Source: Bacteroidota bacterium
GTDB lineage: Bacteria > Bacteroidota > Ignavibacteria > UBA10030 > UBA8401
Assembly (NCBI GenBank): GCA_020052095.1
Contig: JAGVPT010000096.1
Location: forward strand, 8,571 to 72,570
DNA: 64,000 bases
Reading direction: 5' to 3'
Notes under the pieces: model-generated
Databases searched by the model: none
What the model was told of the DNA's origin: nothing
Seen by the model: the letters and a program-made list of their open reading frames with translations, nothing else
Shown: positions 10,971 to 45,645 of the stretch, piece by piece
How the letters are laid out: each line of letters begins with the position of its first letter
Numbering within the stretch: position 1 is the stretch's first letter
Translations under genes and position numbers: made by a program

Positions 10971-11149
10971 TGGAATTGGTGACCCATCGAATCCTAACGG
11001 ACAATGAGCTTATCTATCTTGCTCCGGCATAAGAGGAAGAAGAGAGACGGCATATCTGCTCAAAAAGAGACCCTACTCAACGCTCGGCGAAGAAAACTTT
11101 TGCTCTAGTGTACGCCTTTGCGTATATTGGCAAACCAAATGGAGAGAAC

Positions 11150-11869
11150 ATGAAAGTGGACGTATTGGCGTTCGGCGCCCATCCGGACGACGTGGAGATT
11201 ACCTGCGCCGGCACGGTTGCAAAACTGGCCCGGAACGGAAAAAGTGTCGGCATTATTGACTTGACACAGGGAGAACTTGGAACGCGCGGGACAAAATCAA
11301 TTCGCAAGAAAGAGGCAGAAGAAGCAGGGAAAATCCTCGGCATTGCGTTTCGTGAAAATCTGAAAATCCCCGACGGAAATATTGAAGTGAACAGGAGAAA
11401 TGTAACAAGAATTATTGAAACATTGCGCGCGTACCGACCGGAAGTAATCCTCTTTCCCCACTCGCTCGAACGTCATCCTGATCATGAACATGCCTTCCAA
11501 TTATGCAAAGAAGCGTGGTTCTATGCGGGTCTTGAAAAAATTTCGACAACGGTAAACGGCCGTAGACAAGAGCCGTTCCGGCCGAAGAAATATTTTCATT
11601 TCATGCAGAAGTATGAGTTTACGCCTTCTTTTATCGTCGACGTTTCGAATGTCTACGAGTTGAAAACAAAGTGTTTGCATGCCTACGAGTCACAATTTCA
11701 CAATCCAAGGAGCAAGGAGAGGGAAACCCTCCTTTCTTCGAAGCTTTTTCTCGAATACATCAGGGCGCGGGATTTGCACTACGGCGGTCTGATTAATGTC
11801 GAGTTTGGCGAACCGTTTTTTTCCATTGAACCAATTGGCGTAGACTCATTCTTTGGATTGAAGATGTGA
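11150..11869 (+). CDS. bshB1: PIG-L/LmbE family deacetylase, BshB1-like (bacillithiol biosynthesis)
   Basis: MKVDVLAFGAHPDDVEITCAGTVAKLARNGKSVGIIDLTQGELGTRGT plus HPDHEH. The ORF opens at 11108 but the family N-terminus starts at the 11150 Met. Confidence 0.8.
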   Translation: MKVDVLAFGAHPDDVEITCAGTVAKLARNGKSVGIIDLTQGELGTRGTKSIRKKEAEEAGKILGIAFRENLKIPDGNIEVNRRNVTRIIETLRAYRPEVILFPHSLERHPDHEHAFQLCKEAWFYAGLEKISTTVNGRRQEPFRPKKYFHFMQKYEFTPSFIVDVSNVYELKTKCLHAYESQFHNPRSKERETLLSSKLFLEYIRARDLHYGGLINVEFGEPFFSIEPIGVDSFFGLKM

Positions 11870-12828
11870 CGACCCCCGACCTCCAAGAGCCGAAATCTCT
11901 TTCGATCATGCCTCAGGATAGTGATACTACCGAAGCTTCCCCCACGTGTCCGCTATGCAAGAAGAATAAAAGCACTTCGTTTCCCATCTCTTACTTGCTT
12001 GATCAGAAAACATTTGATGCAAGGAAGTGTCTTTCGTGCAATTTTGTCTATCTTGCTCCCCGGCCGACCAGTCGCGAGATAGCACTCATGTATAGCGACG
12101 AATACTTTCTCCACGACGGCGCCGACTTTGGCGCACATTCTGCCCAGGACTACGAAACTGCTGCACGGCTTGGCTCGGTGAAATTTCCAGAGATCCTGGG
12201 ATGGATCAAGAAATATCAAACGGACGGTAAATTCTTTGAGATAGGCTGTGGCATGGGATATTTTCTGGATTATGCACGACAACATGGTTTCGAAGTCTCA
12301 GGGATTGAGTTTGCCGCGCTTGGCGCAAATGCATGCAAAGAGAAGTTCGGGCTAGAGGTTCTCCAATCATCATTTGAGAAGTACCCCGTTAAGGAGAACT
12401 TGTACACCGTAATTTTCATGGGAGACGTACTGGAGCACTTCAATGAACCGTTGGAAATGCTCCAGAAGGCTCACGCGATGCTAAAGTCGGGCGGAATTGT
12501 TGCGGCAGAAGTTCCATCGATGTTTAATAGCATCACGGGAAGACTAGCAGTGGCCGGGCTGAACATTCTTGGCAAAACAAAGAAAATGCCAATGCCTCCG
12601 TACCATGTAAACGAGTTTACTCCGCGCACACTAGCTTTGATGCTCAAAACCGCGGGCTTCGGCAGCGTCAGAATTGTGCAGAGAATAAAATCGCCGCAAC
12701 GCATAACACTCAGGGGAAATGTGTTTGAAAAGACAACGAAGAAGTTCCTTCAATACCCAAACTTTTACATTACACGATTGGCAGGAGTTCTCGGGGACAG
12801 ACTCCTTGCGATAGGAATCAGGACTTAG
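11866..12828 (+). CDS. Class I SAM-dependent methyltransferase with N-terminal Cys4 ribbon
   Basis: SAM motif I FEIGCGMGYFLDY preceded by CPLC...CLSC. The GTG start overlaps the bshB1 stop. An alternative ATG lies at 11908. Confidence 0.75.
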   Translation: MTTPDLQEPKSLSIMPQDSDTTEASPTCPLCKKNKSTSFPISYLLDQKTFDARKCLSCNFVYLAPRPTSREIALMYSDEYFLHDGADFGAHSAQDYETAARLGSVKFPEILGWIKKYQTDGKFFEIGCGMGYFLDYARQHGFEVSGIEFAALGANACKEKFGLEVLQSSFEKYPVKENLYTVIFMGDVLEHFNEPLEMLQKAHAMLKSGGIVAAEVPSMFNSITGRLAVAGLNILGKTKKMPMPPYHVNEFTPRTLALMLKTAGFGSVRIVQRIKSPQRITLRGNVFEKTTKKFLQYPNFYITRLAGVLGDRLLAIGIRT

Positions 12829-13656: not shown

Positions 13657-13824
13657 ATAGCACCTTCCTCATATCGTAAGGCTCGAAGGGTGTATTCTGT
13701 CCGCCCCTTTTTGAGCTGAACGGTTCCTTGCTCTCTCTCTGCCTTAGTTCTTGATTGTGAAGCTTACAGAGACAACAATCGGATTTCCAATAGCTAATTA
13801 ATAATGAAGGAGTATCAGCAAATG

Positions 13825-15105
13825 CTGAAAGTCATCGCAATCCTGACCATTGCTTTCACACTAATCGGTCCGGCGCAACTTTTGTCCCAAGAATCGCAGC
13901 CGCTTAATCTTGATGAACTTGTTGCCGAGGCGCTTCAAAATAGCCCGCAGCTTCGATCTGCACGGAACCAGGCGGCAGCAGCAAGAACAAAAGTCGACCA
14001 AGTGACGTCGTGGGATGCACCGCAAATCGGATTTGAATTTTATCAAACTCCGATTCAGTCATTTCCCAATCCACTCAAGAATGGAATGGAGACCGACTAC
14101 TTCGTTCAGCAGATGATTCCTTTCCCCGGAAAGCTCTCAGCGATGGGAAAAGCCGCAGAAAATACTGCAGGCATGATAGATCAAGGATACAAAGCACTTG
14201 AGCGACGAATTATCCGTGATTTGAAATCTGCATACTACGAACTCTACCTCGTCCAACGCAAAATCCAAATCAACGCCGAAAATCAGGAATTGATGAGGAA
14301 ATTTGCGGAGATCGCGCGCAAGCAATACGAAGTCGGAATGGGCCAGCAGGCAGATATTTTGCGCGCACAGACCGAGCTGTCGACACTCATCAACGAGGGT
14401 GTTAATCTCCTGAAGGAAAAGAAAGTAGTGGAATCGATGATCAACACGACATTGAGTAGACAGGCAAATGCTCCTCTCGGGTCCGTGGCTGATGTCGAGA
14501 ATACAATCCCTCAATGGACATTCGAGCAACTTCGTCCGCTTGCTCTTGAGAATCGTCCTGAACTAAGGGGAATGACTTTCAATATCGATATGAACAAAGC
14601 TGAATTGTCCGGCTCAAAACGTGAATATTACCCGGATATAATGGCACGTGTTATGTACAAAAACATGGCTGACAGTAAAGACGATTTTTGGTCTGCCATG
14701 GTTGGAATCAATGTTCCACTGGCGTTTTGGTCGAGCGGAAGATACACATCGAAGGTCGAAGAAAATGAACTAAATGTGCGCAAGGCAGAAGATGACCTTG
14801 CGAGCATGAGCAATATGGTGTCATTTGAAGTTCAGGATGCTTTGGTGAAAGTGCAATCCAATTACAATTTGGTTCTTCTCTATAAAAACACCACCATCCC
14901 ACAGGCAGAACAAACATTGCAAGCGACACTGTCGGCATATCAAACGGGCAAAACAGAATTCTTAATGGTCATCGATGCTTATCGTATGCAACTCATGGCA
15001 AAATTGGATCATTACATGTCGGTGATGAGCTATATGGCAAGCCAGGCACAGTTGGAACAAGCCGTCGGGTTGGACATTGCACACATTTCGGAACGAGTTC
15101 AGTAA
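13825..15105 (+). CDS. TolC-family outer membrane efflux protein (CusC/CzcC-like)
   Basis: About 426 aa. Signal peptide followed by the two-repeat TolC helical pattern. An AAGGAG RBS lies 9 nt upstream of ATG 13825, and the ORF also has an ATG at 13804. Confidence 0.8.
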   Translation: MKVIAILTIAFTLIGPAQLLSQESQPLNLDELVAEALQNSPQLRSARNQAAAARTKVDQVTSWDAPQIGFEFYQTPIQSFPNPLKNGMETDYFVQQMIPFPGKLSAMGKAAENTAGMIDQGYKALERRIIRDLKSAYYELYLVQRKIQINAENQELMRKFAEIARKQYEVGMGQQADILRAQTELSTLINEGVNLLKEKKVVESMINTTLSRQANAPLGSVADVENTIPQWTFEQLRPLALENRPELRGMTFNIDMNKAELSGSKREYYPDIMARVMYKNMADSKDDFWSAMVGINVPLAFWSSGRYTSKVEENELNVRKAEDDLASMSNMVSFEVQDALVKVQSNYNLVLLYKNTTIPQAEQTLQATLSAYQTGKTEFLMVIDAYRMQLMAKLDHYMSVMSYMASQAQLEQAVGLDIAHISERVQ

Positions 15106-15130
15106 TTTTATCATCAAGGAGTACGTAATT

Positions 15131-16693
15131 ATGAAGAAAGTCATTATCACAGCAGTTGTCGGCATTCTCCTGGGTTTAGGCGTTGGTTGGTTTGTCTTTC
15201 ATCCCAGCGCTAAGAGCAACGCTTCTAAAGAGCGTAAGATTCTTTTTTATCGCGATCCTATGAATCCACAAATAACCTCCCCGACGCAGAAGAAATCCTC
15301 GGACGGAATGGACTTTGTACCTGTCTATGCGGAACAGTCCGGGGGGACCGGAGAGAAAAAGATCGCCTATTACAAAGATCCGATGCATCCATGGTTTACG
15401 TCAGACAAACCGGGGAAGGCTCCCGATTGCGGAATGGATCTCGTGCCTGCATACGAAGGCGAAAGCGATACGAAAGGGATCAAGATTGATCCGGTCACTG
15501 TCCAGAATATTGGCGTCAAGACTGAAGTCGCAGAAAACAGGAAGCTCACCAAGACTATCCGCGCAACTGGCAAGGTCGATTATGACGAGACGAAAGTCTA
15601 CTCCGTAACGACCAAGATTATGGGATATGTCGAGCGACTTTATGTTGATTATACCGGAAAGACTGTTCGCAAAGGTGAAGTCCTCATGGATCTGTACAGC
15701 CCTGAGCTGGTGACGACACAGCAGGAGTACCTTCAAGCGATTCGCTATCAAAAGGAATTAGAAAAGAGCAGCATTGAAGAGGCGCGCAAGGGCGCCGAAG
15801 AACTTGTGCAAAGTGCAAAGCGTCGACTTCTCTACTGGGATATTCCGGAGAGCGAGATCAAGGCGCTTGAAGAACGCGGAACGCCAAAGAAGACGATGAC
15901 AATTGTTTCTCCGGTTGATGGTGTTGTGATGGATAAGATGGTACTTAAGGGACAAAATGTTATGGCCGGAATGACGCTCTATAAAATAGTTGATCTTTCT
16001 ACCGTGTGGATTCTCGCAGATGTTTATCAATATGAACTCCCGTGGTTGAAAGTGGGACAGACGGCCGACATCGAGCTGTCATATCTTCCAGGCAAACAGT
16101 TTAGCGGTACGGTGAGCTACGTCTATCCATACCTCAACATGGAAACAAAGACTGTAAAAGTGCGAATTCAAGTGACCAACACACTTAACATAGAATTCAA
16201 ACCGGAAATGTACGCGACAGTTAAGCTTTCATCGCCGCTGGCTATAAATGCTGTGACAGTTTCAGACCAGGCGATCATTCGTACGGGTGCGAGAAATATT
16301 ATTGTGGTTGCACTCGGCGGCGGATACTTTGATCCACGAGACGTTACGGTAGGTGTAACCGCAGATGGATACACCCAAGTTCTTGATGGTATACAGGCGG
16401 GAGAGAGTATTGTCACCTCATCGCAATTCTTAATTGATTCCGAAAGCAATCTGAAAGCTGCAATCAATCAGATGAAGGGGCATGAGGGAATGGACATGTC
16501 CAAACCGATGGAAGAAAAGTCGGACTCCTCCGGCCAGCACAAGGGTCACGATATGAATGGAGCGCCCAAAAAGGATCAATCCAAGGCACATGAGGAGCAC
16601 GTGCCCAAAAAAGTGCATCAAAAGGAAAAACCATCCGAACAGGTGAATCATGACATGAGGGATATGCCTGGCATGGATCACGAGAACCATTAA
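15131..16693 (+). CDS. RND efflux periplasmic adaptor (CusB/CzcB-like) with degenerate N-terminal metal-binding repeats and His/Met-rich tail
   Basis: AAGGAG RBS before ATG 15131. Tandem YRDPMNP...DGMDFVP and YKDPMHP...DCGMDLVP motifs, an HlyD-like barrel-sandwich core, and a C-terminal tail rich in H, M, D and K. Confidence 0.85.
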   Translation: MKKVIITAVVGILLGLGVGWFVFHPSAKSNASKERKILFYRDPMNPQITSPTQKKSSDGMDFVPVYAEQSGGTGEKKIAYYKDPMHPWFTSDKPGKAPDCGMDLVPAYEGESDTKGIKIDPVTVQNIGVKTEVAENRKLTKTIRATGKVDYDETKVYSVTTKIMGYVERLYVDYTGKTVRKGEVLMDLYSPELVTTQQEYLQAIRYQKELEKSSIEEARKGAEELVQSAKRRLLYWDIPESEIKALEERGTPKKTMTIVSPVDGVVMDKMVLKGQNVMAGMTLYKIVDLSTVWILADVYQYELPWLKVGQTADIELSYLPGKQFSGTVSYVYPYLNMETKTVKVRIQVTNTLNIEFKPEMYATVKLSSPLAINAVTVSDQAIIRTGARNIIVVALGGGYFDPRDVTVGVTADGYTQVLDGIQAGESIVTSSQFLIDSESNLKAAINQMKGHEGMDMSKPMEEKSDSSGQHKGHDMNGAPKKDQSKAHEEHVPKKVHQKEKPSEQVNHDMRDMPGMDHENH

Positions 16694-16738
16694 CTCGGCA
16701 ATCCAAATAATTCTTGTAGATATATAACGGAGAATACA

Positions 16739-19700
16739 ATGCTAGAAAAAATCATTGAAGCATCTGTTCGCAACAAATTCATGGTCATCCTTGCCGTCTT
16801 ATTCCTCATCGGCTTGGGGATCTACTCGATGTTCAAGATCCCGATTGATGCAATACCAGATTTGAGTGACGTCCAAGTCATCATTTACACAACGTATGAA
16901 GGTCAATCACCGCGCATCGTTGAGGATCAGGTCACCTATCCGCTGACGACAGCGATGGTGGCCGTACCGGGTTCTAAAGTTGTGCGAGGGTATTCCTTCT
17001 TCGGATATTCACTTGTGTATGTGATATTTGAAGACGGAACCGACATTTACTGGGCACGAAGTCGCGTTCTCGAGTATTTGAATTACGCGCAGAAGCGACT
17101 GCCAAAAAACGTAATACCGACTTTAGGTCCTGATGCAACAGGAGTCGGCTGGGTCTTTGAATATACCCTTACATCAGATAAACGCTCGCTGCAAGAATTG
17201 CGTTCGTATCAAGACTGGTATTTGAAGTATGAGTTGACTGCCGTTGAGGGAGTTGCAGAAGTCGCGAGCATCGGAGGCTTCGTCAAGGAGTATCAAGTTA
17301 CGGTAGATCCTGCAAAACTTCTTGCATATAACATTCCGCTGAACATGGTGGAGATGGCGATTACGAATTCCAACAACGACGTGGGCGGCGAAGTCGTTGA
17401 GATGGGTGAAACGGAATTCATGGTGAGGGGCTTGGGCTATATCAAATCATTGGACGACATTAAAGACATTCCCGTTATGGTGGATAAGAAAAGCGGCACG
17501 CCCGTCTATATTCGGGACATTGCTGATGTGACGCTTGGTCCTCTCATGCGGCGAGGTCTTGTGGAGAGCAATGGAGAAGGTGAAGTTGTGGGTGGTATCA
17601 TCGTGATGCGGTATGGCCAGAACGCACTGGATGTGATTGATAATGTGAAGAAGAAACTGGACGTCTTAAAACAAGGATTACCTGAAGACGTGAAGATAAC
17701 GACCGCCTATGACCGCTCGTCGTTAATCGAACGCGCTATTGAAACGCTTAAGGAAAAACTCATTGAAGAAATCGTCATTGTTGCAATCGTTTGTATTCTC
17801 TTCCTGCTTCATGCCCGGAGTGCATTTGTCGCCATCTTCACGTTGCCAACGGCAATTCTCATGGCATTTATCGTGATGAGGTGGCAAGGCATCAATGCCA
17901 ACATCATGTCGCTCGGCGGGATTGCCATAGCAATCGGAGCTATGGTGGATGCCGCTATCATAATGATTGAAAATGCCCACAAGCATATAGAGCGAGAGAA
18001 TGAAAAGCCACCGGAACAGCGAAAGGACCACTGGCAGATAATTCTGGACGCTTCAAAAGAAGTGGGACCCGCTTTGTTCTATTCTCTTCTTGTCATCACA
18101 GTTTCATTTATTCCCGTTTTCACTTTGGAGGCTCAGGAAGGACGATTGTTCCGTCCGTTGGCATTTACCAAGACATATTCAATGGCGGCCGCAGCCATCC
18201 TATCAATCACGATTGTTCCGATCCTCATGGGATATTGGATCCGCGGGAAGATCCTACCGGAAGAACGCAACCCTATTAACCGATTCCTTATCCGAATTTA
18301 TACCCCCGTTGTTGAATTTGTTCTGAAGTTCAACAAGTGGATCATCGTTGCGGCTCTTCTTATCATGGGCGTAACATTCTACCCCTTCAGCAAGATTGGT
18401 TCGGAGTTTATGCCGCCGCTCTACGAGGGTGATCTACTGTATATGCCGACAACTCTTCCCGGCATGTCGATTACCAAAGCAAGAGAACTGCTGCAGCAGA
18501 CTGATAAAATCATCCGTCAATACCCCGAAGTGCATCATGTATTCGGAAAAATCGGGCGGGCAGAAACTGCCACAGACCCTGCAGGACTGGACATGGTGGA
18601 AACGACTATCATGCTTAAACCGGAAATCGAATGGCGACCGGGTATGACTGTCCAAAAACTGATTGATGAGATGGATCGTTCCATTCAATTCCCAGGCGTG
18701 ACTAACGCATGGACAATGCCGATTAAGACCCGTGTCGACATGTTGAGCACAGGAATTAAAACGCCTGTCGGAATCAAAATCTCGGGTCCCGATCTTGCGA
18801 TATTGGAAAAGATTGGAACGGAGGTCGAAGCGATAGTGCGGACCGTGCCTGGAACGCTCAGTGCCTTCGCCGAACGCGCCGTCGGCGGCAATTATTTGGA
18901 TTTCGACATCAATCGGAAGGAGGCTGCACGGTATGGTCTTACTGTCGGCGATGTGCAAAACGTAATTCAGACGGCTATGGGCGGAATGAGTATTACAAAC
19001 ACCGTCGAAGGTTTAGAGCGATACCCGGTGAACCTCCGGTACAGCCGTGAGTTGCGCGATAATATCGAGGCGCTTCAACGAGTGCTTGTCCCGACACCGA
19101 CCGGTGTGCAAATTCCTATTGGTCAACTGGCGACTATCGCGACGCGAAAAGGTCCCATGGTAATACGGAGCGAAGACACTCGTCCCAACGCATGGGTGTA
19201 TATCGATATTAAAGACATCGATGTCGGAACGTATGTTCAGAACGCGAAAAAGATTGTGGCAGAAAAAATAAAGCTTCCGGCCGGTTACAACATTATATGG
19301 AGCGGAGAGTACGAATATATGCAGCGGGCGCAACAGCGTTTGATGCTTGTAATTCCGCTGACCCTCTTCATCATTTTTGTGATCATCTATTTGAATACAC
19401 GATCCTTGACAAAAGTGGCAATCGTATTTCTGGCCGTTCCCTTCTCTCTCGTCGGCGCATTCTGGTTTCTCTACTTCCTAGGATACAACCTCAGTATTGC
19501 CGTATGGGTTGGCATCATCGCGCTGGCCGGATTGGATGCTGAGACCGGAGTGGTGATGCTTCTCTACCTTGATCAAGCCTATGACGAATGGAAACAGAAA
19601 GGACTCATGCGGGGCTTGAAAGATCTCAAAGAGGCAATTCACCATGGGGCCGTGAAGCGCGTTCGCCCGAAAATTATGACAGCGTCAGTAATCATCGCGG

Positions 19701-19891
19701 GGTTAATCCCAATCATGTGGAGTCACGGCACAGGTGCCGATGTGATGAAACGAATCGCTGCACCTATGGTGGGAGGTGTCGTAACGTCCGTGATGTTAGA
19801 ATTGGCTGTTTATCCGGTCATTTACTTCCTGTGGAAGAGTTGGAGCCTCAAAAAAGAAGCAAGGATTGAAGGCCGCTTATTGGAAAACTAA
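16739..19891 (+). CDS. CusA/CzcA-family heavy-metal efflux RND transporter
   Basis: 1050 aa with 12-TM RND architecture. N-terminus MLEKIIEASVRNKFMVIL..., with typical HME-RND length and operon position. Confidence 0.95.
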   Translation: MLEKIIEASVRNKFMVILAVLFLIGLGIYSMFKIPIDAIPDLSDVQVIIYTTYEGQSPRIVEDQVTYPLTTAMVAVPGSKVVRGYSFFGYSLVYVIFEDGTDIYWARSRVLEYLNYAQKRLPKNVIPTLGPDATGVGWVFEYTLTSDKRSLQELRSYQDWYLKYELTAVEGVAEVASIGGFVKEYQVTVDPAKLLAYNIPLNMVEMAITNSNNDVGGEVVEMGETEFMVRGLGYIKSLDDIKDIPVMVDKKSGTPVYIRDIADVTLGPLMRRGLVESNGEGEVVGGIIVMRYGQNALDVIDNVKKKLDVLKQGLPEDVKITTAYDRSSLIERAIETLKEKLIEEIVIVAIVCILFLLHARSAFVAIFTLPTAILMAFIVMRWQGINANIMSLGGIAIAIGAMVDAAIIMIENAHKHIERENEKPPEQRKDHWQIILDASKEVGPALFYSLLVITVSFIPVFTLEAQEGRLFRPLAFTKTYSMAAAAILSITIVPILMGYWIRGKILPEERNPINRFLIRIYTPVVEFVLKFNKWIIVAALLIMGVTFYPFSKIGSEFMPPLYEGDLLYMPTTLPGMSITKARELLQQTDKIIRQYPEVHHVFGKIGRAETATDPAGLDMVETTIMLKPEIEWRPGMTVQKLIDEMDRSIQFPGVTNAWTMPIKTRVDMLSTGIKTPVGIKISGPDLAILEKIGTEVEAIVRTVPGTLSAFAERAVGGNYLDFDINRKEAARYGLTVGDVQNVIQTAMGGMSITNTVEGLERYPVNLRYSRELRDNIEALQRVLVPTPTGVQIPIGQLATIATRKGPMVIRSEDTRPNAWVYIDIKDIDVGTYVQNAKKIVAEKIKLPAGYNIIWSGEYEYMQRAQQRLMLVIPLTLFIIFVIIYLNTRSLTKVAIVFLAVPFSLVGAFWFLYFLGYNLSIAVWVGIIALAGLDAETGVVMLLYLDQAYDEWKQKGLMRGLKDLKEAIHHGAVKRVRPKIMTASVIIAGLIPIMWSHGTGADVMKRIAAPMVGGVVTSVMLELAVYPVIYFLWKSWSLKKEARIEGRLLEN

Positions 19892-38099: not shown

Positions 38100-38771
38100 A
38101 TGGCAAACTATTGTTCACACTGTGGAAAGCCCATGGTGCAAAATGCGAACTATTGCACACATTGCGGGACAACAATCAAGGGAGCGGAACTGAAACAGCG
38201 GCTTCAACACAAACGAGAAAAAGTGGTAGGAACCGTGGGTCCGCAAAAGAAGAATTGGATTCGAACGGGGATTATTCTGGGCGTGCTCAGCTTGTTTGGC
38301 GTTTGGATTTATGCAAACTTGCCCAAAAGGGGCAACCCGATAATCGCATCTCAGCCCGTTGTCGCTGTTGCCGCTACTTACTCGCAAGCACCACAGCAAA
38401 TGGTTGATATTTCTGCAAGAACGGAAAACGGAAAGATCGTTATCTCGTTGGAGGTTGTGCAACAACGAAAATTCGTCGCATTCTCTTCCAATAATCCACA
38501 AAACACAGTGCCATTGCTTGCGTATGTCTCCGGTGAGGGAAAAATTATTACGGCAGTCAGCATGTGTGAGCCCTGCAACTCGCAACGTTTTCATATCCAA
38601 GAGGATAAGCTCGTTTGTAATGCGTGCGGCTCGACATGGGAATTGAATGACTTAGAAGCTGTCAGCGGCAGCTGCGCAAAATTTCCTCCTGATGCTGTTC
38701 CGAACGTCACTGTGAACAACGAAATCCAGATTGATGAAAATATCGTTGCACGCTGGCGACGGAGAATTTAA
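38100..38771 (+). CDS. Zinc-ribbon - TM - DUF2318-like periplasmic Cys-motif protein (paralog 1)
   Basis: N-terminus CSHCG...YCTHCG, one TM, and a C-terminal domain AVSMCEPCNSQRFHIQEDKLVCNACGSTWELNDLEAVSGSCAKFPPD. Confidence 0.7.
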   Translation: MANYCSHCGKPMVQNANYCTHCGTTIKGAELKQRLQHKREKVVGTVGPQKKNWIRTGIILGVLSLFGVWIYANLPKRGNPIIASQPVVAVAATYSQAPQQMVDISARTENGKIVISLEVVQQRKFVAFSSNNPQNTVPLLAYVSGEGKIITAVSMCEPCNSQRFHIQEDKLVCNACGSTWELNDLEAVSGSCAKFPPDAVPNVTVNNEIQIDENIVARWRRRI

Positions 38772-41743: not shown

Positions 41744-41959
41744 GTTATTATTGAGAAGTGTGATTTGCAAATGAACTAACAACGAATCAAGAAAAAGGTT
41801 CGAGGTAACGCTCGCACGGATGCTTTAATGCTCGCCATACTGGCCCCGCGATTTTTCTTTGCCACTGTAAGATTCTTCTTGCATTACGCCGTTATGTTTT
41901 ATATTTTCTACAAGTTATCATCAATTAACAAACGTTCGATTTACTTCAAAAGGAGCCTT

Positions 41960-42214
41960 ATGAGAAAATTCATCGCGCTGTCTGTCTTCATTTTTCTAGT
42001 AAGTAGTGTCGCAATACCTCAAGCGGCCACAAGCACGGGGGAGAAAAAAGAAACAAAATCGGCAACTCACAAGCATCACGACAAGAAAGACGGATGCTGC
42101 TGTATGAAGAATATGAGCGAGGAAAAAAAGGGGGATGGCTGCACGATGGATTCAAAAAAGGAGTCTGAGAAAGAACCAAAAGAGGAATCAAAAAAGGAAA
42201 CCGAAAAGAAATAA
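41960..42214 (+). CDS. Small secreted Lys/Glu-rich protein with CCCM motif
   Basis: AAGGAG RBS and a signal peptide. THKHHDKKDGCCCMKNM...GDGCTMD, with a strong terminator right after the gene. Confidence 0.5.
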   Translation: MRKFIALSVFIFLVSSVAIPQAATSTGEKKETKSATHKHHDKKDGCCCMKNMSEEKKGDGCTMDSKKESEKEPKEESKKETEKK

Positions 42215-42230
42215 CGCGTCGGTTGTTCGA

Positions 42231-42268
42231 AATAAACCTGTGATGCTTTCCATTGTCACAGGTTTATT
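42231..42268 (+). terminator. Rho-independent terminator
   Basis: Perfect 13-bp stem aataaacctgtga / tcacaggtttatt with a 12-nt loop, followed by a T-rich tract. Confidence 0.6.
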
Positions 42269-42310
42269 CATTTTATACTCGATCACTTCCACAACCCACA
42301 GGCGGTCGGA

Positions 42311-42967
42311 ATGAGATGCTCAAATTGCGGCAATGAGCTGAGGAAGGATGTTCTGTTTTGTCCACACTGCGGCACGAAGATTTTTGATAAAAGTGCTCTC
42401 CCTTCATCATCGCGTGTGCCGGGGAAGAAAAGCATGGGCACACGAGCAAAGATCGTATATTCAGCCATCGCCGCTGCCTTGCTGATCGGTATGGGGGTTG
42501 TCTTCGTGCGGAGTCTTCCGGGCGGCGACCATCCCGTTATTCAGAACCAACCGACAATTCCGCAAGCAGAAAATTATGACGGCGTGAAATTGACGATGAC
42601 GCCAATTCCATCAAAAGTGGAAAACGGTTTCATTATTATTTCCCTTTCACAAGTCATCGAAAAGAAAATGGTCTCGTTCACGTATGATGGCAAGACAACT
42701 AAAGTTGACCTGATGGCGTACATCAATCCGCAAGGCAAGCTCGTGACCTCAATTGCAATGTGCGAGCCGTGTAATTCAAAAAGCTTCCACAGTGAATCGC
42801 AAGATCTGGTGTGCGACAATTGCGGCACACGCTGGAATTTCACGACTCTCGAGGGAATTAGCGGATCGTGCCAAAAATATCCGCCAGATCCGGTTCCGAG
42901 CGAGATTGCGGGAGAAGAAGTGCGTATCAGCAAGAAGCTCGTCGAAGGATGGAAATTGAGAATATGA
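42311..42967 (+). CDS. Zinc-ribbon - TM - DUF2318-like periplasmic Cys-motif protein (paralog 2)
   Basis: N-terminus CSNCG...FCPHCG, one TM, and SIAMCEPCNSKSFHSESQDLVCDNCGTRWNFTTLEGISGSCQKYPPD. The C-terminal ...GWKLRI parallels ...ARWRRRI in paralog 1. Confidence 0.7.
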   Translation: MRCSNCGNELRKDVLFCPHCGTKIFDKSALPSSSRVPGKKSMGTRAKIVYSAIAAALLIGMGVVFVRSLPGGDHPVIQNQPTIPQAENYDGVKLTMTPIPSKVENGFIIISLSQVIEKKMVSFTYDGKTTKVDLMAYINPQGKLVTSIAMCEPCNSKSFHSESQDLVCDNCGTRWNFTTLEGISGSCQKYPPDPVPSEIAGEEVRISKKLVEGWKLRI

Positions 42968-43320
42968 GGAAAACGTTCCTTTTTATTTGCGCCGCGTTCA
43001 TTCTTTCGTTGCCCGGCTGCAGGAGATCGACGACCGGGAATACAGCGTCAACAACAAGCACCGCAGCCATTGCTGCAATCAACCTGCCAACACTGAAATG
43101 CAATACCTGTGTCGCAACGGTAAAGAGAACTGTTGCGTCGATGGATGGAGTTGAAAGCGCGGAAGTAGATTTGAAGGCAAAAAACGTAACAGTGCACTAT
43201 TTGGCGGCAAAACTGGATATAGGAAGGATCGAAACCGGAATAAGCAGCGCAGGATACGACGCAAACGACGTAAGGCGGGATTCAACCGCGTACAGGAACT
43301 TGCCGGAGTGCTGCAAGTAA
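42964..43320 (+). CDS. HMA (heavy-metal-associated) domain lipoprotein
   Basis: ATGA overlap with the upstream stop and lipobox LSLPGC. HMA fold with LKCNTCVATVKRTVASMDGVESAEVDL and a C-terminal PECCK. Confidence 0.75.
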   Translation: MRKTFLFICAAFILSLPGCRRSTTGNTASTTSTAAIAAINLPTLKCNTCVATVKRTVASMDGVESAEVDLKAKNVTVHYLAAKLDIGRIETGISSAGYDANDVRRDSTAYRNLPECCK

Positions 43321-43332
43321 GAGCCTCTACGG

Positions 43333-45645
43333 CTACGCCTCCTTCGTCCTGGCTTCAATGCCCCTTCGCACAATCGTAATCAGGAATCCCCCCACTAAAA
43401 TCATTGTCCCCATCCACACCAGGTTAATAAATGGTTTCACGCTAGCTTCGACGATGAGGGTCTCGTTTTTTTTCAGTTGGCCTTCGGCCAGCGGTGCACT
43501 GGCCCCGAGAGTGATCGAAGACTTGCCTCTGTCGCCCCGTCCCATGTTCATCCCCTTTATCGTGAACGCAATCTGTGTGTTCGGCAGCGATGCAGGAATA
43601 TAGCTGACTTTGCCTTTTGCATTGTGCATTTCCGGTGCGAGGCTCACCGTTTTGCCTCCGCGTGTCACCTCAAGAGTCGCGGTGACAATATTTCCTTTTT
43701 CCGGGGAGGTGGAAAAACTATAGCCAAGGTACTTTATCGTCATATCCTGGAACTTCTGTACCTCGTCCTTTTCGACGGTCAACTCTTGTTCGTTCTTCGC
43801 ATCCGGAGTTTCGAGGGAGAGAGGTGAAACGTAAAAATCTTTCGTCATCAGGTTGATGATATCGGGATTCCGCATCAGCCCTTCATTGTCCTTGTTGTAA
43901 AACATCACGGGCGCTACGACAAATCTCTGGTCCCCCCTCTCGACTTCCACGTCGAATGCAAATCGTCCGCGCTCGATCGGATGGTATCCGACATATCGCA
44001 TTTTATATCCCATAGCCTCGACTTGTTTTCCCTGCTCCAGCGATACCGTCTCCTTATCGTCGTACTTTGCCGATGCGACAAAACCTAGGAACATGAGCGA
44101 GAGGCCGATATGCGCAATTGCTCCGCCTGCCATTTTTGGATTGCCTTTGAATATTCTATAACCGACCATGGAGTTTGTGAAAAGCGCAAACGAAGAGGCG
44201 AAAATAAAAGCCAGCATCGTGGCATGATGCGCTCCGAAAAGATAGCTCGCGATCGTAAAGAACAGCGCTAAGAGGAGTGGGACTCGAAGACTCCTGAGAA
44301 GCGTGTCGGAGTCGGAATTTTTCCACCACAAAAGCTGTCCGACGCCGGCGAGAAGCGCGATGAATATTCCGAGCGGGAGAGTCGTTGTCACGTAGTATGA
44401 CATATCAACTGCAGATACTTTTCCCTTGAGGATGCCCGTAATGATCGGTGAAGACGTCCCAATGACGATGAACAGCGCCGAAAACACGATCGCTGACGCG
44501 CCAAGGAACAGCGCAAATTCACGAGACATCAAACTATGCTCAACCGGTACCTTTGGCATCTCCTTCATTCGCGCAAAAAAGAGACCGAACCCGATTCCTG
44601 CAAAAAGAAAGAGGCCTGCCAGTAACAGCCAGTACACCCACATGCCCGGCTCTACGAATGAATGAACGGAGGTGTCGCCGAGCACCCCGCTGCGCGTGAG
44701 AAATGTAGAATACAACACCATCACGAAGCAGAAGATGCTCAGGACAAAGTTTGTTTTGATGAAACTTCCACTGCGCCGTTGGGAAAGCATCGTATGAATC
44801 GAGGCAACGCAGACGAGCCACGGTACGAGCGAAGAATTTTCAACGGGATCCCATCCCCAATACCCACCCCATCCGAGCGTCTCATACGCCCAAAATCCCC
44901 CCATGATTATCCCCGTTCCAAGGATCATTGCGCCAAAAACCGTCCACGGAGTTGACACACGAATCCAACTGACGTAGTCGCGCTTCAAAAGACCGGCAAC
45001 GGCATACGCAAATGGCACAGACATCGACGTGAATCCTATAAACAATACTTGCGGATGAATCACCATCCAATAATTCTGGAGAAGTGGATTCAATCCTTTT
45101 CCTTCATTCGGATATTGCGCCCAAATTCCTTTTGCCCGGTCGAGCCACACAAAATTTGTGAGAGTCAGAGGTACGGGACCTGTGTGAACAAGGTCTGCTG
45201 GAAACAAATCCCAAATGTAGGCGAACGGAGTTTTTACAGCCAGCATGAGGAGAAGAAAGGAGAAAATCAGCGAGTAGATCGCCATCAACTCCGATTCGTA
45301 CCCCTTCTTTGCGGAATACGCCATCAGTGCAACGCCGACAATGCTGGTGTAGAATGCCCATAGCGCGAAGCTTCCCTCCTGACCGGCGTAAAAAGTCGAA
45401 AACAGCAGCGGGTCCGGCAAATCGGTGGAACTGTAATTCCAGACATACGAATACTGAAATTGATGCGTCATGATTAAGTAGATGAGAAGAGCAGCCGCGC
45501 ACATCATTCCAACGACGGCGGTGTGGTAGGCATACCGCGCGAAGAGCAAGAGGCGTGGCGAGTACTTTCTGTGATTCAGGTAATAGGCAAACGACGAGGT
45601 GAGTGCGGCGGCAAACGCAACTCGTATGATAATGCTTCCGATCAT
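43333..45645 (-). CDS. ccmF: Cytochrome c-type biogenesis heme lyase CcmF (long form)
   Basis: 770 aa polytopic protein with the WWD motif WGGYWGWDPVENSSLVPWL and a C-terminal periplasmic extension plus a final TM. Confidence 0.9.
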   Translation of the reverse strand: MIGSIIIRVAFAAALTSSFAYYLNHRKYSPRLLLFARYAYHTAVVGMMCAAALLIYLIMTHQFQYSYVWNYSSTDLPDPLLFSTFYAGQEGSFALWAFYTSIVGVALMAYSAKKGYESELMAIYSLIFSFLLLMLAVKTPFAYIWDLFPADLVHTGPVPLTLTNFVWLDRAKGIWAQYPNEGKGLNPLLQNYWMVIHPQVLFIGFTSMSVPFAYAVAGLLKRDYVSWIRVSTPWTVFGAMILGTGIIMGGFWAYETLGWGGYWGWDPVENSSLVPWLVCVASIHTMLSQRRSGSFIKTNFVLSIFCFVMVLYSTFLTRSGVLGDTSVHSFVEPGMWVYWLLLAGLFLFAGIGFGLFFARMKEMPKVPVEHSLMSREFALFLGASAIVFSALFIVIGTSSPIITGILKGKVSAVDMSYYVTTTLPLGIFIALLAGVGQLLWWKNSDSDTLLRSLRVPLLLALFFTIASYLFGAHHATMLAFIFASSFALFTNSMVGYRIFKGNPKMAGGAIAHIGLSLMFLGFVASAKYDDKETVSLEQGKQVEAMGYKMRYVGYHPIERGRFAFDVEVERGDQRFVVAPVMFYNKDNEGLMRNPDIINLMTKDFYVSPLSLETPDAKNEQELTVEKDEVQKFQDMTIKYLGYSFSTSPEKGNIVTATLEVTRGGKTVSLAPEMHNAKGKVSYIPASLPNTQIAFTIKGMNMGRGDRGKSSITLGASAPLAEGQLKKNETLIVEASVKPFINLVWMGTMILVGGFLITIVRRGIEARTKEA

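Follow-up and report, generated by a model that had tools for sequence, protein, structure and literature searches.

What does a membrane-anchored DUF2318 domain do beside a lipoprotein with an HMA domain, and which metal, if any, do the two handle? The question is raised by a pair of overlapping genes in a 64,000-nucleotide stretch of DNA from a Bacteroidota bacterium (Ignavibacteria; UBA10030; UBA8401; GenBank assembly GCA_020052095.1, contig JAGVPT010000096.1, positions 8,571 to 72,570, forward strand), which we call the window. The first gene encodes a membrane protein, DUF_B, and the second a putative lipoprotein, HMA-CC. With a small secreted protein encoded just upstream, they would form a three-gene periplasmic thiolate cassette (41954-43320) attached to copper/silver export. 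We hold, with about even confidence, that this cassette handles Cu(I)/Ag(I) in the periplasm through thiolates, the lipoprotein serving as a pump chaperone and the DUF2318 domain as a membrane-tethered thiolate centre that exchanges Cu(I).

The DUF_B and HMA-CC gene pair and its recurrence

The cassette and the paralog of its membrane protein comprise the following features.

41954-42214, + strand: small secreted Lys/Glu-rich protein with a CCCM motif, the third cassette member (homologs or analogs lie upstream of DUF_B)
42231-42268, + strand: terminator-like hairpin between the small-protein gene and DUF_B (15-bp stem and T-rich tail; consensus pattern match only)
42311-42967, + strand: DUF_B, bitopic membrane protein of 218 aa (open reading frame list, Pfam, AlphaFold2, Foldseek)
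42314-42382, + strand: cytoplasmic C4 zinc ribbon of DUF_B, aa 2-24 (Zn_ribbon_3, 7.5e-11; Zn_Ribbon_1, 9.6e-10)
42440-42514, + strand: transmembrane helix of DUF_B, aa 44-68 (helix in the AlphaFold2 model)
42659-42955, + strand: periplasmic PF10080/DUF2318 domain of DUF_B, aa 117-215 (Pfam, 3.9e-23)
42761-42871, + strand: five-cysteine motif C151-x2-C154-x13-C168-x2-C171-x15-C187, then the proline loop QKYPPDP (sequence)
42964-42967, + strand: ATGA stop/start overlap of the DUF_B and HMA-CC genes
42964-43320, + strand: HMA-CC lipoprotein of 118 aa (PF00403, NCBIfam, AlphaFold2, Foldseek)
43018-43020, + strand: putative lipobox Cys19 of HMA-CC (signal peptide ends LSLPGC)
aa 40-99 of HMA-CC, + strand: HMA domain (PF00403)
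43099-43110, + strand: C46-N-T-C49 of HMA-CC (sequence)
43309-43317, + strand: C-terminal C116-C117-K (...PECCK) of HMA-CC (sequence)
38100-38771, + strand: DUF_A, paralog of DUF_B, 223 aa, same architecture (PF10080, 2.7e-20, 72.8 bits)

PF10080 (FtrD-like, formerly DUF2318) was detected in DUF_B far above its gathering cut-off (81.9 bits against 26.3), and its cysteines read MCEPCNSKSFHSESQDLVCDNCGTRW...SGSCQKYPPD, that is, CxxC-x13-CxxC-x15-C. Across 83 homologs with identity down to ~40%, C154, C168, C171 and C187 never vary, and the conservation of C151 reaches at least 90%. As the initial annotation had described, DUF_B repeats the architecture and cysteine spacing of DUF_A: the two are 36% identical from end to end (E = 4e-55), both join a ribbon to PF10080, and they share the motif and the W(K/R).RI ending (GWKLRI in DUF_B and RWRRRI in DUF_A). 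The four ribbon cysteines of DUF_B are more than 90% conserved, and the succession of ribbon, single helix and periplasmic ligand-binding domain recalls the layout of bitopic signalling proteins. A transmembrane sensor, whose periplasmic cysteine site would sense metal or redox state and signal through the cytoplasmic zinc ribbon, is nevertheless very unlikely, since the ribbon spans only ~23 residues and matches generic membrane-protein zinc-ribbon families, and no sigma factor or regulator was seen as a conserved neighbour of the cassette among the inspected loci.

The gene product downstream is the putative lipoprotein with an HMA fold, a CNTC site and a C-terminal CC that had been read from the sequence. 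It matched PF00403 with 52.6 bits (E 6e-14, cut-off 24.8 bits), and its best NCBIfam matches were CopZ/MerP. Neither these matches nor those of DUF_B and DUF_A can be ascribed to chance. The AlphaFold2 model has a predicted local distance difference test score (pLDDT) above 95 over residues 34-118, CC tail included, and aligned with MerP (1osd) and CopZ (6ff2) at a TM-score of 0.91-0.94 and a root-mean-square deviation of 0.8 Å (Foldseek). Profile matches to solved HMA structures stop at about residue 101-110, and the CC tail lies beyond. Comparison of 48 homologs with identity down to ~30% revealed as invariant Cys19, C46, C49, C116, C117, GYDA, R105 and L113; the Pro at position -2 of the putative lipobox is atypical. 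A metagenome scan from the lipoprotein side yielded at least 503 confirmed stretches, the best 80 of which were inspected, and all of these 80 carry the tail AY(E/D)(K/N)LxxCCK.

The stop codon of DUF_B (TGA, 42965-42967) overlaps the start codon of HMA-CC (ATG, 42964-42966), exactly as first noted. The translational coupling claimed on that ground is borne out in part: the 4-nt overlap is present in the window and in loci L005 and L008, whereas elsewhere +12 to +85 nt separate the two genes. Public gene callers choose another in-frame ATG at 42949 (MEIENM...), which gives a protein of 123 aa and a 19-nt overlap with the upstream gene (a gap of -19 nt); this ATG arises incidentally from the conserved WKxRI codons, and the choice of start would not alter the mature lipoprotein.

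The recurrence of the pair, put forward in the initial annotation as a check, was then followed in relatives. The scan used one genome per species and confirmed 95 relatives, of which the best 80 loci were kept; the window proteins were mapped onto these loci, and a tree was built from the periplasmic DUF2318 domains. The tree splits clade A (38100 type; 49 rows from Ignavibacteriota, Calditrichota and Kryptoniota) from clade B (42311 type; 32 loci plus the window, all Ignavibacteria-like metagenome-assembled genomes under various NCBI labels) with support 99/92. An HMA lipoprotein gene follows the 42311-type gene in 25 of the 32 clade-B genome loci, the pair is also found in 2 genomes of another family, and a 42311-type gene lies upstream in 14 of the best 80 (of at least 503) metagenome HMA-CC stretches, so the check was positive. 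PF10080 is present in 45/61 relatives, as a single copy in most genomes of the same genus; the window genome has only two copies. A second protein search with a diverse alignment reached no other phyla, its best 120 matches being only close Ignavibacteria-type proteins, and the 42311 protein had no match in 72,556 plasmids (tblastn).

The seven clade-B loci without HMA fall into three kinds. L002 and L007 are apparent recent losses of HMA, L007 having a duplicated fragment of the DUF2318 C-terminus in its place; this duplication, like the frameshift between signal peptide and HMA domain in the HMA gene of L001 (6832-7204, a long-read metagenome-assembled genome), may reflect assembly errors or decay. 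In the sublineage L009-L011 the first cysteine, C151, is replaced by Ser and the DUF2318 gene follows bshB1. In L012 (2469-2981) and L018 (3045-3398), DUF_B is followed instead by a CC-bearing, cysteine-rich lipoprotein with the motif KY(A/S)CC.K..CDFCALHEASC.CY and no Pfam match.

The third gene goes with the pair. A small secreted Lys-rich protein of the CC(C)M type is encoded directly upstream of DUF_B in 34 of 42 loci with DUF_B and HMA, and it is absent from 19 of 22 DUF2318 loci without HMA. The complete trio also occurs in L093 and L095, of another family, amid housekeeping genes and with neither cus nor ccm nearby. Four observations argue for DUF_B as a working partner of the lipoprotein, more than a neighbour: the two genes overlap or lie close together, the small CC protein is mostly tied to the presence of both, the trio is found outside any cus/ccm locus, and DUF2318 usually has a second cysteine-based metal module (YHS in FetA, the CcmH-like protein of clade A, and in clade B either HMA-CC or, in L012/L018, the other CC lipoprotein).

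Cus-type and CopA-type pumps near the cassette

The same strand of the window carries a pump operon upstream of the cassette.

13804-19891, + strand: CusC-CusB-CusA-type heavy-metal RND efflux operon (TIGR00914, 1221 bits; CusB NF007303, 4.9e-60; OEP)

In 16 of the 25 HMA-linked loci the cassette is preceded on its own strand by homologs of CusC, CusB and CusA. The operon directly precedes the cassette in most related genomes, and either a CusCBA-type RND pump or a CopA-type ATPase precedes the cassette in 18 of the 25. The P-type ATPases of L049 and L027 have YHS/HMBD/HMA heads; that of L023 is a fragment at the start of the locus, called from its GDGINDAPAL motif by reading. The motif in the fourth transmembrane helix (TM4) of the window's CusA-type pump is AIGAMVDAAIIMIEN, and every neighbouring RND pump has the AIG...VD..I...EN type and none the DFG type. 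We take the AIG-type motif, after the Nies 2003 classification, to mark the monovalent Cu/Ag pump class. CusA ends ~1 kb before the cassette in L101, of the same genus; in the window ~22 kb is intercalated (19892-42310), with genes for a P-II-like sensor, a kinase, type IX secretion system cargo, a CcmH-like protein, a TonB receptor, the clade-A DUF2318/ATP-binding cassette (ABC) module and a PAP2 protein. In the CusB-like adaptor of the window (15077-16693) the motif Y(R/K)DPM(N/H)P occurs twice in the N-terminal part, and the C-terminal tail is long and rich in His, Met and Asp; a related adaptor in L135 matches the Pfam HMBD family.

Seen from the lipoprotein side, the link to pumps also occurs without DUF2318. 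Some 26 of the best 80 (of at least 503) metagenome HMA-CC loci lie in or beside cus operons without any DUF2318; they include CusC-CusB-HMA-HMA-CusA arrangements (L135, L148, L167 and L181, by Pfam check). In L174 and L179, too, cusB and cusA enclose one or two HMA genes with the AYxxLxxCCK tail. In these six loci the position is near that of cusF in E. coli cusCFBA. In several metagenome loci CusA and HMA-CC face ccmF, again without DUF2318. The primary association of HMA-CC is with Cus-type pumps, and DUF_B is an add-on to the lipoprotein in some lineages. Neither the HMA-CC family nor the ribbon-transmembrane-DUF2318 proteins were found described in the literature searched, and HMA-CC seems to be a cysteine-based periplasmic family, widespread and undescribed, that accompanies Cus-type Cu/Ag pumps.

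In the mechanism that we propose, HMA-CC would most likely be the periplasmic Cu(I)/Ag(I) chaperone of a CusCBA-type pump, a functional analogue of CusF without homology to it, and its two dithiol sites would pass metal by ligand exchange. DUF_B would be an optional membrane-tethered thiolate metal centre, a metal or redox partner, that may pass Cu(I) to and from the lipoprotein and the small CC protein and so act as a buffer or relay at the membrane surface. Domain architecture, predicted folds, invariant cysteines, the recurrence of pair and trio and the Cus/CopA neighbourhood are established here. We infer the metal identity, the direct contact of DUF_B with the lipoprotein and the direction of transfer, and likewise the nature of the DUF2318 site, which may be a metal ion, an Fe-S cluster or disulfides.

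Several points weigh against this mechanism. DUF2318 is dispensable for HMA-CC, most HMA-CC genes among the best 80 metagenome loci being without it, and HMA is dispensable for DUF2318, as in L009-L011 and in a further clade, C, described below. Each module is found separately beside ccmF, so that their adjacency could in part be a shared location. The DUF2318 family is elsewhere tied to iron and redox functions, namely in an FTR1 fusion with FMN_bind and ApbE neighbours and in the Fet system, and the predicted Rieske-like fold would suit electron transfer as well as metal relay. Cysteine Cu(I) sites in the oxidising periplasm also need a reductant, and no candidate for it was identified. The 'natural partner pair' of the initial annotation is accordingly to be qualified: the pair recurs, and it is not obligate, with HMA-CC mostly lacking DUF2318 and the sister-clade DUF2318 lacking HMA.

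The shared ccm and bshB1 locus

The cassette faces a cytochrome c maturation operon, and bshB1 lies further upstream.

43333-45645, - strand: ccmF, first gene met of the convergent ccmFEDCBA operon (PF16327, PF01578; 12 nt from the HMA-CC stop)
11108-11869, + strand: bshB1, bacillithiol biosynthesis deacetylase (TIGR04001, 289.8 bits against a cut-off of 182.5)

Wherever the contig extends beyond the cassette, in 24 genome loci, a convergent ccmF lies downstream. In the same family, six genomes of other genera (L087-L090, L092 and L097) have the order bshB1, DUF2318, convergent ccmFEDCBA without HMA or Cus; a short ribbon-transmembrane-DUF2318 gene begins 13-16 nt after bshB1, its stop abuts or overlaps that of ccmF, and its DUF2318 domains form the separate clade C (support 100/99). 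In the window the end of bshB1 is overlapped by a S-adenosylmethionine-methyltransferase-like gene (11866-12828, 320 aa) with only weak generic methyltransferase matches, whose product might be an N-methyl-bacillithiol synthase.

These arrangements raise the possibility that DUF2318 belongs with bshB1 and ccm, in periplasmic thiol homeostasis or in a CcmH-less System I cytochrome c maturation, and HMA-CC with Cus, the modules merely meeting in the gap between convergent bshB1 and ccm operons as a permissive insertion site. Besides clade C, the loci with CusA and HMA-CC facing ccmF and the constant convergent ccmF, this possibility draws on the window genome, in which no canonical CcmH was found, and on clade A. 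There, 47 of 49 rows have a CcmH-like double-ribbon protein upstream and FtsX/ABC genes downstream, the DUF_A orthogroup travelling with the CcmH-like protein and a MacB-type ABC transporter. In six Calditrichota-type loci (L026, L029, L033, L046, L057 and L073) this module, consisting of CcmH-like, DUF2318, FtsX and ABC genes, comes straight after a ccmF-like gene of the same orientation, and neither ccmE nor ccmC is nearby; in Melioribacteraceae a ccmF-like gene instead follows the ABC gene of the module. This suggests that a CcmF could have the clade-A CcmH-like protein as its missing CcmH partner. Most genomes of the order have two CcmF paralogs, and the second of the window genome is at C154:2065-2799.

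A mirror-tree analysis of 31 loci also fits mere co-location and counts against a working pair. The correlation between DUF2318 and HMA was r = 0.70, those with CcmF being 0.90 for DUF2318 and 0.83 for HMA; given CcmF the partial r was -0.20, and 1943 of 2000 permutations were at least as high, so that no co-variation of the two beyond vertical descent was found across these loci. Set against this are the trio of L093 and L095, which has neither ccm nor cus nearby, the stop/start overlaps in the window, L005 and L008, and the distribution of the small CC protein. The convergent orientation moreover excludes co-transcription with ccm. CcmF is present in all of 52 high-quality relatives, and 12 of these lack PF10080, so DUF2318 is not required for cytochrome c maturation; an obligatory Ccm role was rejected on this count. 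We consider location alone an improbable explanation of the pair.

In the region of 33-48 kb a scan against Rfam found no RNA family. A scan for sigma-70 promoters saw none, the sigma-70 consensus being uninformative for this phylum.

The DUF2318 site and its likeness to known systems

The AlphaFold2 model of DUF_B, built from the 83 homologs, has a mean pLDDT of 86.5; from residue 91 on, where it forms a beta-rich domain, the pLDDT exceeds 90. Its best Foldseek matches in the PDB were Rieske ferredoxins and domains (2i7f, E = 1.3e-4; 2qpz, TM-score 0.73, target-normalised); a sequence search of the PDB gave only marginal zinc-ribbon matches, the best being PhnA (E = 0.057). The DUF2318 domain is thus predicted to have a Rieske-type fold with all-cysteine ligands in the cluster-binding loops. 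Rieske ligand loops have the form CxH and CxxH; the CEPC and CDNC loops would match these by position and spacing, and QKYPPDP may correspond to the Rieske proline loop. Rieske homology by sequence was rejected, as alignment of DUF2318 with two Rieske proteins of the same genome gave a profile probability below 2% (hhalign) and Pfam found no PF00355 match in DUF_B, whose residues at the Rieske ligand positions are all Cys; the likeness lies at the level of the fold only. Of 23 aligned sequences only 3 have a twin arginine before the helix, by which a Tat-exported Fe-S protein was rejected as a general reading. Without a conserved twin-arginine motif, assembly of a cluster in the cytoplasm is unlikely, and the site probably takes up a metal ion, or forms disulfides, in the periplasm.

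The fold fits a second interpretation of DUF_B, in which DUF2318 would not carry metal but would transfer electrons or exchange thiols and disulfides, for example through a rubredoxin- or Rieske-like iron centre or through redox-active CxxC pairs. It would maintain the cysteines of HMA-CC and of the small CC protein in the reduced state, or alter the oxidation state of bound copper. Proteins of the DUF_B type bear the NCBI name 'Fe-S-containing protein', and bshB1, for the synthesis of a low-molecular-weight thiol, is a recurrent neighbour. A genome of the same order (G056) encodes a 442-aa FTR1 iron permease fused to a C-terminal PF10080/DUF2318 domain (L084:6963-8291), beside genes for Fur, an FMN_bind-domain protein, ApbE and a TonB-dependent receptor; this locus looks like a flavin-linked FTR1 iron system with DUF2318 as part of the permease. 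In C. jejuni, the DUF2318 protein FetA works with the thioredoxin-like FetE/FetF, with a redox role put forward by the authors (PMC10783030). A redox role is rather doubtful here all the same: DUF_B, with its single helix, offers no evident electron path through the membrane, the missing twin-arginine motif makes cytoplasmic cluster assembly unlikely, and most HMA-CC lipoproteins manage without DUF2318, which is therefore not their general maintenance factor.

The initial annotation had argued that the domain handles a soft metal rather than iron. At this locus the gene neighbourhood supports the argument, with Cus or CopA in 18 of 25 loci and no match to FTR1 (PF03239) or P19 (PF10634) in the 98.8%-complete window genome. 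It does not extend to the domain at large, given the FTR1 fusion beside Fur in the same order and the Campylobacter iron cluster (PMC10783030). A broader view would accommodate both, with DUF2318 as a general periplasmic all-cysteine Rieske-fold centre that hands thiophilic metals, or their electrons, to transporters, iron at FTR1 and copper at Cus/CopA. We regard this view as speculative and unlikely. If it were true, the trio would be a purely thiolate Cu(I) relay, unlike the Met/His/Trp sites of CusF, CopC and PcoE, and what FetA does in the Fet systems of Campylobacter, Salmonella and Yersinia would be explained along the same lines.

For the thiolate cassette as we propose it, the main value lies in a tractable handle on DUF2318 and in the pointer to a widespread cysteine-based companion of Cus pumps. 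DUF_B has one helix and a soluble domain of ~150 residues, together with a candidate partner of ~100 residues, whereas the eight-helix FetA is hard to handle; with a one-helix protein and a small, defined candidate partner, metal content, redox behaviour and transfer become directly testable. If confirmed, the cassette would add a thiolate route to periplasmic copper handling and aid the annotation of copper/silver resistance islands in environmental genomes.

The closest described relative of DUF_B is FetA (CJJ81176_1651/Cj1660; FlsD in the FetMP-Fls system of Salmonella/E. coli), which has the same PF10080 domain and cysteine motif, described in C. jejuni as CxxC-x13-CxxC-x14/15-C (PMC6083913). 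In Campylobacter the DUF2318 protein belongs to an iron-uptake cluster and is required for the FetMP system, its biochemical function being unknown (PMC10783030). Both proteins have a second cysteine-based metal module, a fused YHS in FetA (PMC10783030) and a separate HMA lipoprotein beside DUF_B. FetA has eight membrane helices and the YHS, whereas DUF_B has a zinc ribbon, one predicted helix and no YHS match. FetA, which is needed when iron is limiting, is accompanied by FetM (FTR1 family), FetP/P19, two thioredoxins and a MacB-type ABC transporter (PMC10783030, PMC6083913, PMC7285068); the neighbours of DUF_B, in contrast, are copper/silver export genes, and its genome has neither FTR1 nor P19. 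The window cassette is therefore not a member of the FetMP-Fet(Fls) iron-uptake system. That it might nonetheless be an iron-uptake accessory in the manner of FetMP-FetABCDEF, as the shared family and identical cysteine motif could suggest, is scarcely credible in view of the same missing iron genes, the copper-gene neighbours and a cassette without thioredoxin genes.

Rieske [2Fe-2S] ferredoxins (2i7f, 2qpz) share the fold predicted for DUF2318 (Foldseek E ~1e-4, TM-score 0.68-0.73, target-normalised), and in both two ligand loops are followed by a proline loop. In DUF2318, the Rieske CxH...CxxH is replaced by CxxC...CxxC with a fifth cysteine, and there is no conserved Tat signal.

HMA-CC has the beta-alpha-beta-beta-alpha-beta fold of MerP/CopZ with CxxC in the same loop, the first, and MerP is periplasmic too; HMA-CC differs from both in being a putative lipoprotein and in its ordered tail AYxxLxxCCK, whose vicinal Cys pair is absent from solved HMA structures. 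MerA combines an N-terminal HMA domain with a C-terminal CC pair, a logic that HMA-CC resembles. With CusF, HMA-CC shares the gene position, in or directly after cusCBA-type operons, and presumably the role of feeding the pump; the two are not homologous, Pfam finding HMA only. CusF binds Cu(I) through Met/His/Trp, whereas HMA-CC offers four cysteine thiolates.

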